In this document: positions 276 through 46,838 of the stretch, in pieces
How the letters are laid out: every line of letters starts with the position of its first letter
Position numbering within the stretch: the first letter of the stretch is position 1
Assembly (NCBI RefSeq): GCF_037126435.1
Contig: NZ_CP147020.1
Coordinates: forward strand, 1,843,293 to 1,907,292
DNA length: 64,000 bases
Source of the DNA: Bernardetia sp. ABR2-2B
GTDB lineage: Bacteria; Bacteroidota; Bacteroidia; Cytophagales; Bernardetiaceae
Direction: 5' to 3'
Program-made: the position numbers and the translations under genes
The notes under the pieces: generated by a model
Database searches by the model: none
Told to the model about the DNA's origin: nothing
Seen by the model: the letters and a program-made list of their open reading frames with translations, nothing else

Positions 276-3200
276 TTAAATCTCTCCCCCATTCATCCAC
301 TCTTCAAAAGCTCTTTCTTTTTGCTTTTTGAGCGTATCGTATTTTGGCAGAAATTCTTCTTCATAATAGACTGGCATATTCAACCTTAAAAATTCCTTTG
401 AGCGTTCGGCATAATTATCCAAACCAGCATCTAAAGATTCTAGAGCATATATTTCATTTGCTCTAGCCGAATAAGGAAAGGTTTCTATAACTTGATAAGC
501 AACATCATAAGCTTTGTCTTTCAAATTATTTCGCTTATAATAAGCAATAGCTTCTTGCAAAATTTCAAAATCAAAAGGAAGTCCTGCGATTGCTTTTTGC
601 ATTGCAATTTTAGAACGAGTTGTATCTCCTAGCTGTTCTGCAGAAAGAGCTGTGTAGAATTGTTTTTTAGACTTTTCGTAAGCACGAACAGGTTGTAGAT
701 TATCCAAAATAGAAGCAGCCGAAAGTAATTTATTATCCTTCCAAAGCAACTCCAAATCAATAAGCTGAAAACGTTGAAGAGTTTGAAAATCTAATTCTTC
801 TGCACTTAATTGTGTAGCAGAGTTTCGCCAAAGTAGCGCACTTTGTAAATCATTATTTTTTAAGTCAAATTCTATTTTATCCAAAACTACTTCCAGTTTT
901 AGATTTTGATTTGTCATTGTTTGCATTTTTTGAGCAAACTCTTTTGTTCCTTCTTCTCCTACCAAATACGGAATTTGATAATGAAAATAACGCCTTTTGG
1001 CATCTTCATCTAAAGAATCAAAATTTATTTTCTGTCCTGCATCTTGCTGTAAAATCAAATACATTTCATTTGCTGTTGCTTGAAAAGGATGCGAAGCAAG
1101 AGTGTCCCAACCTCTCCACATTTGGAGCGCATCTGTTTTGTCCTCTTGATATAGTGCTTGTTCAGAGTGAGTAATAGCTTCATACAAATTATTCAACCCT
1201 CTATTCATCAAATAGGCTTTATTAAAATACAAAGCAGCTTCATCGTATTGCTTGTGTTCCAAAAACCAAAGTCCTAACAAGTGTTTATACTGCGAAGACG
1301 AATTTCCATAAGCTTTATCTAAATATTTTAAAGTAATAAAAGCATTATAAACATCGCCTAATTTGTACTGATTGACAGCCTTTACCAAAAGCATAAAAGG
1401 AATATGTTCTTGATTAGCCAAAACTTGCTCTCTATTTTTGATAAGTTCTACAATCGTACTATCTATTTTTTGATTCGTTTTTTCATCTGCTACTCTTTGA
1501 TTTAGAAGTCCGTAGTGATAGACATAAAGCAAGTCTTCGGTTGTCCAAACAGAGTCTTTAACTAAATCCTCATTAAAATTGATTTCTGTATTTGAATTTA
1601 ATTTTGTTGCTCTTTTATCTAAATCAAAAAAGCGTTTTTGATACAACATTTTATTCGAAAGCGCACCTGTATTTTCTTGTGTCTTGATGCGAAGTTCTAA
1701 AGAATCTAAAGCTGTATAATTATCCGTTAGCGCATTGAGTGTCCACCAGTTTGCATCTAAGGCTGTTTTTGCTTCTTCTGAATCTGCATATTTTTTCACT
1801 TTTTCTAGTTCTCTAGCCACAGAATCATTATTTTTTATTCCAAAACGCTCTATCGAACTAAAGATTAGATTATTTTTTAGTTGTGGATTATTCGGAAACT
1901 CTGCCGAACCTTTCAAAAGTGTATAATAGGATTGATCTTCATTATTTGTACGATTCATCAAATCCGAAACGGCTGTGTAAGTATAAGGCGATGCCGTACG
2001 TTCGGATGCAATTTTGAGAAAAGAATACGCTTCCTGCCAACGATATTGACGCAGTGCAATTCCTGCCATTCCCCAATAGGCTTTATGATTTGTATAAACT
2101 TTATAAATTGCTGATTGATAATTGATTTTGGCAAGTTGATAGGTTTCTTCTACTTTTTTATCTTTCTCTTTTGTCTCTTCCAATGTCAAATTGCTTGTAA
2201 TTCCATTCCCTGTGGCATTTTCATCTACTCCTACTTGATTTAAAGCATCAGCTTCTGATAAAAACACATCACCGATTCCAGTAAGATAACCTGATTGTGC
2301 TTGATTGTAATGAATAAAGTTATGACGATAGGCAAAAATAGTGATGATAATTCCTGCTACGATAGCAGTATAGCTCCAATTTACTTTAAGAGGTTGCCAT
2401 AAAAGAGGGTAGGCTTGAAGACTTTTTTCTAGTAATTCACTAAAATTGATGAAAATATAAATGAAGAAAGCAACAGCAAAACCAATATTTGAATAAATAA
2501 TGATGTCAGAAAAAATATCAATAAGTGGGTCATTATTGGTAGAAATAGCATACATAATCGTAGAACAGGCAATCAATGCCCAACCAATATATAAAAGCAG
2601 ACCCACAGGACGAGCTTCAAAAAACTTTTTATAATGCGCTTCTCTTCCTACAAAACCCCAAATTCCTAACACAGTCATAATGACAAAAATCACAAAAGGA
2701 GGAATATAGATAATCTCCCAAGTAATGCCGTGAATACTGAAAAGATAAGAATAAACCATGTGTAGAAAAAATATTCCACTAACAATTGCAAAGTGTGTTA
2801 GAGTGCTATTTGAGCCATCTGCACCACGAGAAACAAGCCAATACAATGCTCTAGGAATTTCGTGTCCATTAAAAATAACAAATAAAAACGTAAGAACAAT
2901 AGGAACTACAATACCATTATTAGCTAAGAAGAATACAGGATTATTGAGGGTGTTAAGCTCTGAATCTACTAAAAAGCTCATACCAATAGCCACAGCCGAA
3001 ATAACTAAAAAGCGAACAAGCAAAGAACCTTTTGCAAAAAATTGGAATAAAAAAGTAACCACACCAAAACTTAAAAGAACGATAATAAACCATTTTTTCT
3101 CATTCTGCCACTCCATAAGACCTTGAATACCAGCGAGTCCATCAATAGAACAATAGCTCAAAAATATCGCAAAAACAAAAAGCACAATTCCGTACCAATG

Positions 3201-3575
3201 GACACGCAAATAAGTAGAAGCAGTCAGAATCAAAACCCATGCAAAGGCAATGCTAAGAGCAAAAAGATTAGCAGCAGAGTAGTTTAGCTGTAGAAAGGAA
3301 GTTGAAAAAGTTTTGTTGAGCAAATAACCATCTACTTCTGCAATAAAGGGAAAAAAGACATGTTGGAAACTATCAATTTGAAGAGGAACAGTAGTAAGTT
3401 CGCCATTGGAAGTCCATTCGAAGACAGCTTTTTCTCCCAACACAAACGCATACAAATAAGCTCCCAAAGCAGCAAAAAGCACAAAAATAGAAAGCGTACA
3501 CAAAATACGCTCACTTAAAGACCATTTTCTCCAAAAAATTAGGTTTTTCATAATAATGTAGCTGACAGTTTCCAA
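276..3575 (-). CDS. Polytopic integral membrane protein with a long C-terminal TPR-repeat region (DUF2723 / PMT-like fold is a guess).
   Basis: 1099-aa ORF. The N-terminal ~420 aa contain many hydrophobic helices and the C-terminal ~650 aa are repetitive and TPR-like (A/Y/L periodicity). The track start at 3575 is TTG; the ATG giving MKNLIFW at 3551 is the more likely start. Confidence 0.6.
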   Translation of the reverse strand: METVSYIIMKNLIFWRKWSLSERILCTLSIFVLFAALGAYLYAFVLGEKAVFEWTSNGELTTVPLQIDSFQHVFFPFIAEVDGYLLNKTFSTSFLQLNYSAANLFALSIAFAWVLILTASTYLRVHWYGIVLFVFAIFLSYCSIDGLAGIQGLMEWQNEKKWFIIVLLSFGVVTFLFQFFAKGSLLVRFLVISAVAIGMSFLVDSELNTLNNPVFFLANNGIVVPIVLTFLFVIFNGHEIPRALYWLVSRGADGSNSTLTHFAIVSGIFFLHMVYSYLFSIHGITWEIIYIPPFVIFVIMTVLGIWGFVGREAHYKKFFEARPVGLLLYIGWALIACSTIMYAISTNNDPLIDIFSDIIIYSNIGFAVAFFIYIFINFSELLEKSLQAYPLLWQPLKVNWSYTAIVAGIIITIFAYRHNFIHYNQAQSGYLTGIGDVFLSEADALNQVGVDENATGNGITSNLTLEETKEKDKKVEETYQLAKINYQSAIYKVYTNHKAYWGMAGIALRQYRWQEAYSFLKIASERTASPYTYTAVSDLMNRTNNEDQSYYTLLKGSAEFPNNPQLKNNLIFSSIERFGIKNNDSVARELEKVKKYADSEEAKTALDANWWTLNALTDNYTALDSLELRIKTQENTGALSNKMLYQKRFFDLDKRATKLNSNTEINFNEDLVKDSVWTTEDLLYVYHYGLLNQRVADEKTNQKIDSTIVELIKNREQVLANQEHIPFMLLVKAVNQYKLGDVYNAFITLKYLDKAYGNSSSQYKHLLGLWFLEHKQYDEAALYFNKAYLMNRGLNNLYEAITHSEQALYQEDKTDALQMWRGWDTLASHPFQATANEMYLILQQDAGQKINFDSLDEDAKRRYFHYQIPYLVGEEGTKEFAQKMQTMTNQNLKLEVVLDKIEFDLKNNDLQSALLWRNSATQLSAEELDFQTLQRFQLIDLELLWKDNKLLSAASILDNLQPVRAYEKSKKQFYTALSAEQLGDTTRSKIAMQKAIAGLPFDFEILQEAIAYYKRNNLKDKAYDVAYQVIETFPYSARANEIYALESLDAGLDNYAERSKEFLRLNMPVYYEEEFLPKYDTLKKQKERAFEEWMNGGEI

Positions 3576-15783: not shown

Positions 15784-15867
15784 ATCTTAAAACCTTATTC
15801 TGTCACAAGAAATAAAACAGCTCTTGCTTGGCTTTGCTGAGTGAGAGGTTTTATTATATTTGAGTTT

Positions 15868-15990
15868 TTAGGTCAAGTCTGAAGACTTGTAAAATTGATA
15901 GGTCATAGTCATCGCTGCGCTAAAGACAACGCCCAATACTTAATTTTTTTGTTTGGCTATGGAAGACTACGAACACGGTAGAAATAAAAA
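15868..15990 (+). repeat. R1 interspersed repeat copy (core caagtcTTCAGActtg palindrome followed by gataggtcatagtcatcgctgcgctaaagacaacgcccaa).
   Basis: Matches at least 7 other copies in the window (17400, 32800, 34737, 36225, 45415, 45950, 46700). Confidence 0.8.
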
Positions 15991-17358: not shown

Positions 17359-17399
17359 CCCTCGTTCGTCGTAGTTTTCCAATAGCCAAACAAAAAAAA

Positions 17400-17590
17400 T
17401 GAATGTTGGGCGTTGTCTTTAGCGAAGCGATGACTACGACCTATCAGTTTGGCAAATCTTAGATTTGCGAGTGTCAGTATTTTTGTAATTACTGCGTTCT
17501 TGTTGGTGTTCCCATTTGCGAAAACCCACAAAGCCGTTGTTGTGTCTTTAGTTTCGGTTTGCCGTTACGCTGACCAACAACAGCGAGTAG
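17400..17590 (-). repeat. Composite R1 (17400-17500) plus R2 (17496-17590) repeat in reverse orientation.
   Basis: Reverse complement matches the R1 consensus (taattacaaaaatact...caaatctaagattt...gataggtcgtagtcatcg) and the R2 hairpin. Confidence 0.8.
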
Positions 17591-32799: not shown

Positions 32800-33075
32800 A
32801 AAACACAAAAAAACTACTTGAACTGCAAATCTAAGATTTGCTAAAATGATAGGTAGTAGTCATCGCTGCGCTAAAGACAACGCCCAACATTCGTTTTTTT
32901 ACCTTTTATTTGGAACACTACGCACATCAGGTTTTTTTTTGGTTTTGTGGGAAGTTAGTAGATTTGTGAGGGTATTGTTTGTTGTTGGTCATCGTAACGG
33001 CAAACCGAAACTAAAGACCAACAACGGCTTCTTTATAATGCTTTGGTTTTTTTGGAAGACCAACAAGAACGCAGA
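32800..33075 (+). repeat. Composite R1 (32800-32935) plus R2 (32925-33075) repeat.
   Basis: R1 core gcaaatctaagatttgctaaaatgataggtagtagtcatcgctgcgctaaagacaacgcccaaca followed by the R2 hairpin gttgttggtcatcgtaacggcaaaccgaaactaaagaccaacaac. Confidence 0.8.
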
Positions 33076-33780: not shown

Positions 33781-34145
33781 ATACACTGTTGTTGGTCATC
33801 GTAACGGCAAACCGAAACTAAAGACCAACAACGGCTTCTTATCTAATGATTTGGACTTTTTGGAAGACCAACAAGAACGTAACAACGGCTTTTTTTACGT
33901 TTTTAGCAAATCGGAACACCAACAAGAACGTAGAATTTGAATAAAAATCTGTTTTTTTTTGATTTGAGTTTTTTGTTTTTTGTGGGAAGTTATTAGGTTT
34001 GTGGGGTGTGTTTGTTGTTGGTCATCGTAACGGCAAGCCGAAACTAAAGACCAACAACGGCTTCTTTCTAATGATTTGGATTTTTTGGAAGACCAACAAG
34101 AACGTAGACAACGCTTAACTACTACTGTTTTGGAACACTACGCTC
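33781..34145 (+). repeat. Two tandem R2 copies (33781-33925 carries three ccaacaagaacg motifs; 33955-34115) plus an R1-type terminal motif (ggaacactacgctcatcagg).
   Basis: Direct sequence match to the other R2 copies. Confidence 0.8.
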
Positions 34146-34673
34146 ATCAGGGGGAGTTACTCTTAAAATATCCCAATAGTCTCCGTTAAATTCATAGATA
34201 GGTAAATGGACGAAGTTGTACAAAGCTTCTCGTAGCTCTTTAGTTTGTTCCTTCCATAGTTTCTCTGACCTGATAATTCCATTTTTAAATTTTTTCTCAT
34301 CTGTAACTTTTTTAGGATGCCAAGCAGAAAGCCAATATCCTTCCACATCCTTTTGTTCTACATCTTCTAATGTTTCTAACGAAGCCTTTGATATTTTACT
34401 TGCGTATTTCTTATAATACAGAAACATATCATCCACTAATAATAAAATAGAATACATGTAAAATATGGAACCCCAACTATTATCTTCTGCTTTGCTCTCT
34501 AAATAACTAATGAGTTGATCCAACTGAGTTTCTATTTCTTTACTACTGATATATGTAGTATAATAGCTAAGTTTTACTAATATTGGATTTTCAAAAGTTA
34601 TAGGTAACTCTTTTTCTTTAGCTTTCTCGTCGAAAGACAATAGAGTTCTTTTAAATAGTCTATGTTCAAACAT
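34122..34673 (-). CDS. Hypothetical protein (ORFan) between the R2 repeats and the IS element.
   Basis: 183-aa ORF with no motif I recognise. Confidence 0.35.
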   Translation of the reverse strand: MFEHRLFKRTLLSFDEKAKEKELPITFENPILVKLSYYTTYISSKEIETQLDQLISYLESKAEDNSWGSIFYMYSILLLVDDMFLYYKKYASKISKASLETLEDVEQKDVEGYWLSAWHPKKVTDEKKFKNGIIRSEKLWKEQTKELREALYNFVHLPIYEFNGDYWDILRVTPPDERSVPKQ

Positions 34674-34788
34674 TGATATTATTGAATTATGATAGCACCT
34701 TTTTTACCGTTAAAATTGTAATTTATATGTTCACAAATGTTGGGCGTTGTCTGCAACTACGACCTATCAGTCCAGCAAGTCTTAGACC

Positions 34789-36224
34789 TTATCCTGTCCC
34801 ATAAACTTTTCAATTTTGGCTATTGTTTTGTATTGATTTTATTTATTTACTATTCTTACCTTCATTTTATGTTATATCAACCTTTGGAACATTGGAGCGA
34901 ACGAGAATTTATGGATTGTGGTGTTGAAGACTTACGAGAAGCGAAAAGTATTTCGAAGATGGCAGATAAATTATTAGCTACTCCAGAAAACTCTTTCAGT
35001 AGTAGCGTAGGTAATAGTCTACGAAAAGCAGCTTGGCGTATTTTTTCAAAGGAAGAAGTAGATATTAGCTACGGACATTATCGTCAATCTTCTCTTCGTT
35101 GTTCCTCTGAATCTATGGTTTTGGTTCACCAGGATACAACAGATTTGAATTTTGGAGGTCATTTGGCTAGTGAAGGTTTAGGTGACTTAGGAGGTAGTAC
35201 TGGCAAGCCTATTCTAGGTCTTTGTGTTCATAGTGCTTTAGTTACTACGGAAGCAGGTATTCCTTTGGGTTTGATTTCACAAAAGATATGGGCGCCTACA
35301 GTGGGCAGTAAAGAAAAAAAAGTAATTCCTCACCTTCCAATAGAAGAAAAAGAAAGTTATCGTTGGTTAGAGGCTCTACAAGATATTAGCCATCGTTTAA
35401 AAGATGTTTCTAAGGTAATTGTAGTTTCTGATAGAGAGAGTGATTTTTATGAATATATTGATGCTACTCGTGGTAGAAATGTGGAGTTGTTATTTAGAGT
35501 GCATCATTTACGTCGTAGAGTATATGCAAATGGAGAGAAGATAGCTTTAGGGCAAGTTAGTTTTTCATCATTATCAGAGATAGATGTTTTTCTACCTAAG
35601 AGCAAAACTAGAGAAGCTAGAAAAGCTCGTCTTACAATAAGCTAGGGAGATATTATTTGCCCACCTTCGCAAAGGAAAAAGGGATCAGAACATCATTTAT
35701 CTCTTATTATAGCTAAAGAAATGCACCCTCCCAAAGATCAAGAGGCAGTAGAATGGTATCTACTAACCACTCAAAAAATAGTTACCCTTCAACAGGCACT
35801 TCTTTGTATAGAACACTACAAAAAACGTTGGACTATTGAGCGTTGGCATTATGTGCTTAAACAGGGTTTACGAATAGAAAAACTACAGTTTGATACATTT
35901 ACTTCACTATCTAATGCTATCAGCTTACTCTCCATTGTAGCTTGGCAACTTTATTTGCTCAAAAAACTGGCAGAAGACTATGAAGATATTTCTGCTGATC
36001 AAGTATTGACAAAGATACAACTAGAGGTGTTAGGAAAACAAAGTCAGAAAAAAATACGCTACCTTCAAGAGGCTTTGATACGCATCGCTGTGTTAGGTGG
36101 ATTTACACCATCTAAAAAACAACCTCTACCTGGCGAAATGACAATATGGAAAGGGTATAAGATGCTTAGTTTAATAGTTCAAGGCTATAAACTGGCTAAC
36201 CCAAAAAAATATGGGACAGGATAA
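34789..36224 (+). mobile_element. IS4-family insertion sequence with perfect 12-bp terminal inverted repeats (TTATCCTGTCCC / GGGACAGGATAA) and a 9-bp direct target duplication GTCTTAGAC (34779-34787 and 36226-36234). It is inserted into the palindromic core of an R1 repeat.
   Basis: TIRs and TSD read directly from the sequence. Flanking halves at 34737-34788 and 36225-36275 together reconstitute an R1 element. Confidence 0.75.
34869..36224 (+). pseudogene. IS4-family transposase interrupted by a single in-frame TAG at 35643-35645. Both halves are in the same reading frame.
   Basis: ORFs 34737..35645 and 35721..36224 are both in frame 0 with no other stop between them. The C-terminal motif YKKRWTIERWHYVLKQ is typical of IS4. 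The likely start is the ATG at 34869, inside the IS. Confidence 0.65.
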
Positions 36225-36483
36225 GGTCTTAGACTTGCAAGTTAAGTAGGTATTTTTGTAATTACTGCTCTGTCTCGCAAGAAATAAAATGGCTATCACT
36301 CGTTTTTAACGAGTGATTTATATGTATTCGGCTTGTACTTGTAGCCATAATTTTTGTATTTTCTTTTCCGAGTTGTTGTTGTTTAGTTTTGATTTACCGT
36401 TACAGTTACCAAAAAAGACGAAAGTACAATCAAATAGTGAATAACTAGAAATTATTTATTTCAATCACTAAACTACCAAAAAA

Positions 36484-36649: not shown

Positions 36650-37225
36650 TTACTTGAAAACTCCTACCAAACGATAATAATCCATCATCGTAATACGGAA
36701 GGTTTCTCGCTCTTTCTTAGTATCTAAAATAGGAATTTCATTAGGAAGCATATAAAATTCGTATTTGTCTAACAGGCTATTATAAAGTTGTGTAGCAAAT
36801 TCGTATTGTGTATCTACGTGTCCTGCAATGTAAAAAAGTGTTCCCTGTGCTTCGGTTTTAGGATTTTTCCAACGGATTTTGAGGGTGTCATTTTTAGATT
36901 CATCAAAATAATCTTCTATGTATTTATTGGGGTCTGTGATAATGTAAGCTTTGTCCTTATCCCACAGATAAACGATTGTCATATTCAGAACAGGCTTCAA
37001 AGTATCTTCACTTGCATCTTCATGAGTATAAATTTCTCTTTTTAGTTTAGGTTCGTCTTTCTTGTTATAATCTAGACTTCTAGTGTTTTTAAAAAATAAA
37101 ACTGAATTTTGTGTAGTCGAATTTTTTGTCTCACTAGCAGAAACTCGTTTGTCTTTATCAGGGTTACAACCTAGAAGAAAAATAGAGCAGAGCGTTATCA
37201 GAGACAGATAAATAATAGATTTCAT
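36650..37225 (-). CDS. Hypothetical lipoprotein.
   Basis: 191-aa ORF with a signal plus lipobox (ITLCSIFLLGCNP). Confidence 0.4.
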   Translation of the reverse strand: MKSIIYLSLITLCSIFLLGCNPDKDKRVSASETKNSTTQNSVLFFKNTRSLDYNKKDEPKLKREIYTHEDASEDTLKPVLNMTIVYLWDKDKAYIITDPNKYIEDYFDESKNDTLKIRWKNPKTEAQGTLFYIAGHVDTQYEFATQLYNSLLDKYEFYMLPNEIPILDTKKERETFRITMMDYYRLVGVFK

Positions 37226-45214: not shown

Positions 45215-45414
45215 GGGCGATGCAGTTTTGATTTTGGAGTAACAATCTACAAAGTTAGGAAAAAAAATTGAAAATTCCTTTTTTTATATGAAATATTTTT
45301 GTAGGTAATAGATTTTTGTTTTACGGTACAAGATTGAGTAAAAGGCAGATTTTTATTTTCAAGTAAATACAAAATATTTACTTAGTTGTTGGGCTTAGTT
45401 TGTAACTAAGAACT

Positions 45415-45586
45415 ATCAATTATATATCTTCAAATTTATGTGGTCAAGTAATTACAAAAATACTTACTTGACTTGCAAATCTAAGATTTAGCTACGCTGA
45501 CTTAAAAGTTGCTGAAATGATAGGTCGTAGTCATAAACAACGCTTAGCAATTTTTCTCTAGTTTTTTTGAACACTACGTCCATCTG
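45415..45586 (+). repeat. R1 repeat copy (full length, ~150 bp).
   Basis: About 88% identical to the copy at 45950-46106. It contains taattacaaaaatact, the aaatctaagattt palindrome, gataggtcgtagtcat and ggaacactacg. Confidence 0.85.
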
Positions 45587-45663
45587 GGAGGCTTAAAAAC
45601 TAGACAAAAAAAATGTCTGACGCATGACACGCCAAACATTAAACAAATGATAAATTTTATTTT

Positions 45664-45826: not shown

Positions 45827-45949
45827 AAATTCAAATTTTAATTAGTAATAAAAATCAAATATACTCAAAATCAGTCACTTAACAAGTGAAAGATTACTTT
45901 AATATTTTCATGATATTCCTTTTCAAAAGATTTATTTATAATAATATCA

Positions 45950-46106
45950 GTTATATAAACCTTCAAATTTATGTTGTCAAGTAATTACAAAACTACCTAC
46001 TTGACCTGTAAATCTAAGATTAGCTACGCTGACTTAAAAGTTGCTGAAATGATAAATCATAGTCATAGACAACGCTTAACTGATAATTTTTGGGAACACT
46101 AATAGG
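45950..46106 (+). repeat. R1 repeat copy, a direct repeat of 45415-45586.
   Basis: Sequence alignment by eye, about 88% identity. Confidence 0.85.
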
Positions 46107-46115
46107 AATGGAGTA

Positions 46116-46699: not shown

Positions 46700-46760
46700 A
46701 TCACAACTATTGGACGTTGTCTTTAGCGCAGCGAACGACCTATCAATTTTACAAGTCTTC
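46700..46760 (-). repeat. R1 repeat fragment in reverse orientation (ttggacgttgtctttagcgcagcgaacgacctatcaa...caagtcttcagacttaaac).
   Basis: The reverse complement matches the R1 core including the caagtcttcagacttg palindrome. Confidence 0.75.
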
Positions 46761-46838
46761 AGACTTAAACTAAAAACTCAAATATATTAAATAGGCAGTG
46801 TTTTCATATTCTTTTGGCGAAATGCTACAATAAAAAAA

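Follow-up and report, generated by a model that had tools for sequence, protein, structure and literature searches.

An IS50-subgroup insertion sequence in the palindromic core of an intergenic repeat of Bernardetia sp. ABR2-2B: a probable target preference and a stop codon in the transposase gene

A 64-kb stretch of the genome of Bernardetia sp. ABR2-2B (Bacteroidota, Cytophagales; G+C content of the stretch 32%), referred to here as the window, contains an insertion sequence (IS) that interrupts one copy of an intergenic repeat, R1, at its palindromic core, and whose transposase gene is divided by an in-frame TAG codon. The locus raises two questions: whether the element selected the R1 core or merely survived there, and whether the stop codon is decay or design. 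The reading developed below, which we hold to be very probable, is that an IS of the IS50 subgroup entered the R1 core through a preferred 15-bp target sequence, and that this copy was later broken by a change of TGG to TAG.

The 9-mer GTCTTAGAC occurs exactly twice in the window, in both cases flush against an end of the IS (Table 1). When the IS and one of the 9-mers were deleted in silico, the resulting junction aligned with the intact R1 copies of the window, which hold a single 9-mer. A profile built from the window copies identified seven R1 copies in the 64 kb using nhmmer, and matched the interrupted copy as two halves; these overlap by about 10 profile positions, which corresponds to the duplication. 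The first-pass annotation had described the 9-bp target-site duplication as the central palindrome of R1, with the two flanks rebuilding a complete repeat, and the junction alignment and the profile halves agree with this. It had compared the site with a palindrome at 15868; such a palindrome exists, but at 15874–15889, where the plus strand reads CAAGTCTGAAGACTTG and the string given earlier is the reverse complement.

The ends of the element were set by comparison with eight loci carrying an element of about 92.5% identity, which were found in ENA and Logan assemblies via the 90% protein cluster. The first base is C and the last base is G in every related copy, and the IS should therefore be annotated as 34788–36225 and not as 34789–36224, as previously proposed, which leaves a stray base at either end. 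The terminal inverted repeats are perfect, as had been noted, but are 16 bp long rather than 12 bp (the 12-bp inner strings are TTATCCTGTCCC at 34789–34800 and GGGACAGGATAA at 36213–36224 in direct reading).

The inverted repeat can be followed outwards to 36 nt, with 89% complementarity (34775–34810 against 36203–36238). This might suggest that the 9-mers, together with the adjoining GCAA/TTGC, form the outer portion of terminal inverted repeats some 36 bp long (ends GCAAGTCTTAGAC), belonging to a larger element with no visible duplication; the 9-mers of a related copy, L004, which are exact reverse complements of each other, would fit such an arrangement. We regard it as extremely improbable. 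Related copies agree with one another only from CTTATCC inwards, and at L003, L006 and L052 the flanks are unrelated, perfect direct repeats. Because these copies have different perfect 9-bp duplications, the 9-mer is target DNA and not part of the IS end. In addition, the full palindrome, with one 9-mer only, is present in intact R1 copies that have no IS, and the centre base makes the window 9-mers direct rather than inverted repeats. The apparent inverted repeat runs to 36 nt because the target is itself palindromic, which is a known source of confusion between IS ends and target and gives exactly such an ambiguity (PMC2577343). The long inverted repeat around the IS should thus be annotated as an artefact of the palindromic target.

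The other insertion sites of the element, whose membership of R1 was judged by the R1 profile, are listed in Table 1. Three of the eight loci lie in R1 (the window copy, L004 and the left end of L007) and five lie outside it (L001, L002, L003, L006 and L052). The three R1 insertions break the repeat at the same profile position, and they come from three assemblies and occur in both orientations. Neither L004 nor L007 has flanks orthologous to those of the window copy, and the three insertions are therefore independent.

The target preference was derived by aligning 16 IS ends by half-site, with the IS on one side. Immediately outside the duplication, C is present in 15 of the 16 half-sites, A in 14/16 and A in 12/16. 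Within the duplication the counts out of 16 are G 9, T 15, C 11, T 12, W 16, A 14, R 14, A 14 and C 9. The result is a 15-bp palindromic motif, CAA-GTCTWAGAC-TTG (CAAGTCTWAGACTTG), to which the R1 core is an exact match; the target sequence carrying the CAA/TTG arms is CAAGTCTTAGACTTG. Weight matrices were then built from non-R1 ends only, in order to avoid circularity, and used to score all 62,538 positions of the window from which the IS had been removed. The matrix of 11 non-R1 ends ranked the real site first of 62,538, with R1 cores at ranks 2, 3, 5 and 11. The six ends from the three insertions with perfect duplications also ranked it first, with R1 cores at ranks 2, 3, 4 and 6, as did a matrix made solely from the hybrid ends. 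There are 11 occurrences of the strict core TCTWAGA in the window, five of them within R1. Sequence preference alone is therefore sufficient for R1 to be hit, and these comparisons support the view that the element prefers a 15-bp palindromic motif, for which R1 would be a preferred, hot-spot target but not an obligatory one. The earlier suggestion that the R1 palindrome is a preferred target, in the manner of ISs that target repetitive extragenic palindromes (REPs), gains from the three independent hits at one R1 position but needs modification, in that the targeting is not exclusive: copies are found at sequences other than R1, yet their sites share the motif, which appears to be what is recognised.

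An association with R1 could also arise from chance followed by selection, with insertions in genes being purged and those in repeats persisting. R1 is intergenic and abundant, and only surviving insertions can be observed. Such an account is nevertheless very unlikely. It does not explain the base-pair precision with which three independent insertions occupy the same 9 bp on the symmetry axis, nor why the sites outside R1 share the motif, including CAA/TTG beyond the duplication; the insertion at L052 appears to interrupt a coding region; and the matrix trained exclusively on non-R1 sites places the real site first.

Some observations weigh against the reading that we prefer. The motif rests on eight loci of an element that is 92% identical, and the copies in the same genome that correspond to WXA36036, WXA33188 and WXA34033 are not among them. 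Survival bias could add to the enrichment in R1, since an insertion into an intergenic repeat does no harm. Matching duplications are missing at L001, at L002 and at the right end of L007, and the two 9-mers of L004 differ at the centre base. Non-matching duplications of ISRm22 were ascribed by the authors to recombination between copies (PMC1525189), and by analogy those seen here may be attributed to the same process. For the inverted 9-mers of L004, mutation, assembly error or recombination are all possible.

Three further details of these loci are worth recording. The 9-mers of L004 (1404–1412 and 2858–2866; also L005 27–35), GTCTTAGAC and GTCTAAGAC, are exact reverse complements and not direct repeats, and the same inverted relation is seen at L050, which carries a 42% relative. 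The copy at L007 is interrupted at 1371–2306 by another transposase gene (DDE_Tnp_4 / DDE_Tnp_1) and looks nested. At L002 a fragment of an IS110-type transposase gene (2817–3416) abuts the right end of the IS, which also looks nested.

A different explanation of the target choice is suggested by more distant relatives. Metagenome elements with transposases of 41–69% identity and with similar ends are seated at the centres of differing palindromes, namely GGAAAAGGC(A/G)TGCCTTTTCC, CGAGCTT(G/A)TAGCTCG, TTCGGAGTTGCAAACTCCGAA and GTCCGACGTTTACGACGTCGGAC. Around the centre of the duplication, 9–10 of 12 pairs are complementary in these relatives, compared to a mean of 3.3 at random window positions, where the probability of 8 or more is 0.006. 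The transposase might therefore read the shape of a palindrome (hairpin, cruciform or deformable DNA) rather than its sequence, as the palindromes are unlike one another in sequence (GGAAAAGGCATGCCTTTTCC, CGAGCTTGTAGCTCG, TTCGGAGTTGCAAACTCCGAA, GTCCGACGTTTACGACGTCGGAC) and the R1 core is itself predicted to form a hairpin with a 7-bp stem. We consider this unlikely. The sites at L006 and L052 are weakly palindromic or not palindromic, and still fit the motif half-site by half-site, while a pure sequence matrix is enough to find the real site. The relatives also keep the Tn5-like A-G...C-T frame, with A at −10 in 10/14 half-sites, G at −9 in 12/14 and C at −1 in 14/14. Their palindromic targeting, seen in one or two sites per lineage, is no more than suggestive.

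A single frame, 451 codons long and interrupted by one stop, runs from 34869 to 36224, and its terminal TAA lies inside the right inverted repeat. The joined protein matches the NCBIfam model NF033590 (transpos_IS4_3, IS4 family) with 290.9 bits against a cut-off of 160, and Pfam DDE_Tnp_1 with 25.6 bits against a cut-off of 23. Pfam Tnp_DNA_bind, the Tn5-type N-terminal domain, scores just under its cut-off (23.9 against 24), and PF02281 (dimerisation), which is recorded for some relatives, has no match in the window's protein. Among solved structures, Tn5 transposase comes closest (E = 1.3e-32; alignment over residues 8–443), and the phmmer alignment extends to Tn5 residue 466 of 477. The catalytic residues D89, D188 and E324 pair with Tn5 D97, D188 and E326 and are invariant among the aligned homologues, and the complete YREK motif Y-(2)-R-(3)-E-(6)-K (Y317, R320, E324, K331), a criterion taken from De Palmenaer et al. 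(2008; PMC2266710), is invariant in 10 aligned sequences. The IS50 subgroup is described as having a size of 1350–1550 bp, 5′-CT (CW) ends and direct repeats of 8–9 bp (Table 1 of PMC2266710), which fits the size of the present element, its ends CTTATCC... and its perfect 9-bp duplication; by our own reading, the left end agrees with the subgroup's consensus for the ends at five of the seven positions that it specifies. On these sequence criteria the transposase is assigned to the IS50/Tn5 subgroup of the IS4 family, and the family given in the first-pass annotation stands. We note that the right inverted repeat doubles as the code for the conserved YGTG and the stop codon, a role that may explain why the CTTATCCTGTCCCATA end is kept in relatives down to approximately 34–42% protein identity.

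The TAG codon is located between the second and third catalytic residues. In the alignment of homologues, eight of the nine sequences have Trp in this column, as part of a ...SWG... motif, and the Trp is kept in homologues down to 54% identity. The same genome encodes a protein, P0123 (WXA36036), that matches the window's product at each of the other 450 residues and carries W where the stop falls. W is also present in P0124 (WXA33188 and WXA34033), which shows four residue differences. At the DNA level, the homologous codon is TGG in 9/9 related copies. As judged from these comparisons, the TAG is a recent G-to-A nonsense mutation at 35644. The proposal of a nonsense mutation without a frameshift is thus upheld, and the comparison with other copies that had been suggested as a check gives TGG or W throughout, with no second copy containing TAG. 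The UniRef label "n=3" of P0123 is not taken to mean that three copies are intact, as P0121 and P0122 are fragments of P0123; UniRef100 merges sub-fragments. The accessions shown are one (WXA36036) for the intact identical protein and two for the near-identical P0124.

It could be argued that the TAG is programmed, through regulated readthrough (which the first-pass annotation had also entertained) or as a means of making a deliberately truncated regulatory protein. The two open reading frames (ORFs) do lie in one frame with a single stop between them, and the 258-residue product retains the end-binding region and could in principle compete for IS ends. However, programmed readthrough is rejected because the same-genome protein has W and all nine related DNA copies have TGG, to which the conservation of W in more distant homologues can be added. 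TAG is an ordinary stop here: it closes six of the 27 long ORFs of the window, and the genetic code is therefore standard. ARAGORN found no tRNA genes in the window, hence no suppressor tRNA candidate within it. A programmed stop is highly improbable.

A possible error of sequencing, base calling or assembly at 35644, in which case the copy would be intact, also counts against a nonsense mutation. The difference from an otherwise identical same-genome protein is one base, and multi-copy repeats are prone to polishing errors. There is, on the other hand, no positive sign of an error. Decayed copies are common in related assemblies (a frameshifted C-terminus at L006, interruption by another IS at L007 and a split at L052), and the split GenBank annotation WXA35979/WXA35980 agrees with the stop, though it derives from the same assembly. 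We therefore judge an error to be improbable, and retain the nonsense mutation. For annotation, WXA35979 and WXA35980 are best combined as one transposase pseudogene.

These results suggest the following history. The 1438-bp element would have transposed into the hairpin core of an R1 repeat, its target being chosen by the 15-bp palindromic motif, of which the core is a perfect match. On the Tn5 paradigm, a two-fold symmetric complex of transposase and IS ends would make cuts staggered by 9 bp in the target, and GTCTTAGAC would be duplicated when the gaps are repaired. The G-to-A change at 35644, converting the Trp259 codon TGG to TAG, followed insertion. The resulting 258-residue product keeps the DNA-binding region, D89 and D188 and lacks E324, YREK and the C-terminal region, without which it is unable to catalyse transposition. 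As its ends are intact, the copy could presumably still be mobilised in trans by those copies in the genome that are intact.

This history can be set against known systems. The element resembles Tn5/IS50 in that the transposase aligns end to end, with the DDE triad and YREK, and in its 5′-CT ends, length of about 1.4 kb and 9-bp duplication. The targets are also similar, being palindromic with G/C at the ends of the duplication and A/T directly outside. Differences include a transposase identity only in the 30% range, the Bacteroidota host and the stop codon within the right end. The motif found here is also far more informative, at 15 bp, with C/G rather than T/A at duplication positions 3/7 and CAA/TTG outside. 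Tn5 inserts almost at random. Published target motifs are AGNTYWRANCT for Tn5/IS50 and GNNGCTNAGCNNC for Tn10, both with 9-bp duplications (Linheiro and Bergman, 2008; PMC2577343). Compared with these, the motif described here is a more sharply defined form of A-GNTYWRANC-T, the Tn5 motif, and of that of Tn10. The hot spots of IS10/Tn10 (NGCTNAGCN within GNNGCTNAGCNNC) likewise combine a 9-bp duplication and a symmetric consensus to which outside bases contribute, and the central CTNAG is common to GTCTTAGAC; Tn10 differs in its subgroup and transposase, and has G/C at positions 2/8, where the present motif has T/A.

REP targeting by ISs is well documented. A parallel in terms of location is ISRm22 (IS4 family, IS4Sa subgroup) of Sinorhizobium meliloti, which was found inserted at the symmetry axis of a REP (Tobes and Pareja, 2006; PMC1525189). 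In both cases an IS4-family element occupies the symmetry axis of a repeated extragenic palindrome and some copies have non-matching duplications. ISRm22 differs in having 6-bp duplications, in its subgroup and in that all of its copies lie in REPs, compared to 9 bp and three of eight loci here. Independent insertions at one position of the repeat, a feature by which REP-targeting is recognised, are seen at R1 (the window copy, L004 and the left end of L007). The type 1 association of Tobes and Pareja, in which nearly all copies lie in the repeat, does not describe an element with three of the eight examined loci in R1. Other elements that use an abundant and harmless intergenic palindrome as a landing site are IS1397 and ISKpn1 (IS3 family) and ISPpu9, ISPpu10, ISPa11 and IS621 (IS110 family). 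These have unrelated enzymes and mechanisms, duplications of 0–3 bp and a near-absolute specificity; in the IS110 family, a guide (bridge) RNA is used (PMC11208160). A strict REP is an imperfect palindrome of 20–40 bp present in high copy number and associated with a RAYT (REP-associated tyrosine transposase) gene; R1 itself is approximately 130–185 bp long, with a 7-bp-stem core and seven copies in 64 kb.

The case is otherwise ordinary mobile-element biology, matching the palindromic target model of Tn5/Tn10 and the precedent of ISRm22. It adds an example from the Bacteroidota of an IS50-subgroup element for which an abundant intergenic palindrome serves as a safe place to land, and it yields a concrete 15-bp target motif. 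If the preference is confirmed, such a close structural relative of Tn5 could reveal the contacts between transposase and target that set specificity.

Table 1. Features of the window, with their coordinates, and insertion sites of the related copies (9-mers adjoining the left and right IS ends).
Feature	Coordinates	Strand	Description
Insertion sequence	34788–36225	+	1438 bp; IS4 family, IS50/Tn5 subgroup; ends set against 8 related copies, about 92.5% full-length DNA identity
Left terminal inverted repeat	34788–34803	+	CTTATCCTGTCCCATA; 16/16 match to other end
Right terminal inverted repeat	36210–36225	−	Plus strand TATGGGACAGGATAAG; 16/16; also encodes C-terminal YGTG and stop codon
Transposase, N-terminal part	34869–35645	+	258 codons plus TAG; identical to WXA35979; DNA-binding region, D89, D188
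Premature amber TAG	35643–35645	+	Ancestral TGG (Trp259) by comparison; G-to-A at 35644
Transposase, remainder in same frame	35646–36224	+	YREK, E324; annotated only from ATG 35721 as WXA35980 (167 aa)
Target-site duplication, left copy	34779–34787		GTCTTAGAC, 9 bp
Target-site duplication, right copy	36226–36234		GTCTTAGAC, 9 bp
Left half of 15-bp target motif	34776–34787	+	CAA plus GTCTTAGAC; from half-site table of 16 IS ends and weight-matrix ranking
Interrupted R1, left part	34704–34787	+	Profile match 34704–34789, profile positions 10–115; ends in left duplication copy
Interrupted R1, right part	36226–36303	+	Profile positions 105–186; TTG at 36235–36237 completes 15-bp motif
Intact R1	17359–17542	+	Core CAAATCTTAGATTTG at 17453–17467; unoccupied, high-scoring target
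Intact R1	32806–32932	−	Core 32826–32840; unoccupied, high-scoring target
Intact R1	45406–45589	−	21-nt insert directly before core; core 45476–45490
Intact R1	45941–46110	−	Same 21-nt insert as in 45406–45589; core 46009–46023
R1, variant subfamily	15827–15988	−	Even-length core CAAGTCTGAAGACTTG at 15874–15889
Partial R1, variant subfamily	46700–46769	+	Found with R1 profile
L004 (L005: same left junction)			Left GTCTTAGAC, right GTCTAAGAC; in R1, opposite orientation; 9-mers differ only at centre base
L007			Left ATCTTAGAT, right GTTTAGAAC; only left end in R1, at same position, abutting R1 left half; right flank unrelated
L003			Both GTTTTAAAT; not R1; perfect duplication
L006			Both CTTTTAGAT; not R1; perfect duplication
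L052			Both CTCTATCTC; not R1; perfect duplication
L001			Left GTCCTAAAC, right GCTCATGAC; not R1; duplication not matching
L002			Left CTCTAACAG, right ATCTTAGAG; not R1; duplication not matching

R1 is modular in build and comprises at least two subfamilies. The core of one is odd in length, A(A/G)TCTTAGA(T/C)T, and that of the other, represented by the copies at 15827 and 46700, is even (AGTCTTCAGACT). The core occurs once per intact R1, for example as GCAAATCTTAGATTTGC at 17452 and 32825. The 21-nt insert found before the core in two copies is ACTTTTAAGTCAGCGTAGCTA, and some copies contain an extra block, TTAGCGCAGCGAT. At gathering thresholds, Rfam gave no family for R1 or for any other part of the window. 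We also considered whether R1 might be a miniature inverted-repeat transposable element derived from the IS, and rejected this: R1 has no similarity to the IS ends, and the end pattern CTTATCCTGTCCCATA matches the two IS ends and no other place in the window.

Further copies were sought in several collections. An exact 32-mer of the IS end gave no matches in a genome-contig collection that does not include the source genome, and a protein-guided scan of the same collection found no relative. No contigs encoding the window's 167-aa ORF, P0123 or P0124 were found in the collections searched. Plasmids searched with tblastn gave only distant relatives, of at most 33% identity; in viral contigs, a degenerate 19-mer of the IS end matched one unrelated locus and a profile scan found nothing. 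In metagenome contigs the degenerate 19-mer gave 43 loci, five of which encode relatives at 34–42% identity, the rest being chance matches.

A broader idea, which is tentative and which we would sooner doubt than accept, is that this IS and its 41–92% relatives with CTTATCCTGTCCCATA-type ends form a Tn5-like clade of unusual target specificity (about 15 bp, extending beyond the 9-bp duplication), each lineage being tuned to the REP-like palindrome of its own host. If true, these would be natural sequence-selective versions of the tagmentation enzyme, and IS specificity would be co-evolving with host repeats.

Two of the relatives show features of their own. At L053 (530–537 and 1982–1989), the sequences flanking a 69% relative are GGCGTGCC and GGCATGCC, an even palindrome of 8 bp within GGAAAAGGCATGCCTTTTCC, which suggests an 8-bp rather than a 9-bp duplication in this lineage. 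At L054, a Y1_Tnp gene (802–1347; IS200 or RAYT type) stands directly beside the palindrome occupied by a 54% relative in another organism, and hints that this palindrome is a genuine REP.

In the window, the genes on either side of the IS are co-oriented, both on the minus strand, and the IS is 115 bp upstream of where the ORF at 34122–34673 starts. A hairpin with a perfect 10-bp stem, ATCACTCGTT-TTT-AACGAGTGAT (36295–36317), lies between R1 and the 3′ terminus of the ORF at 36650–37225 (minus strand) and resembles a terminator.

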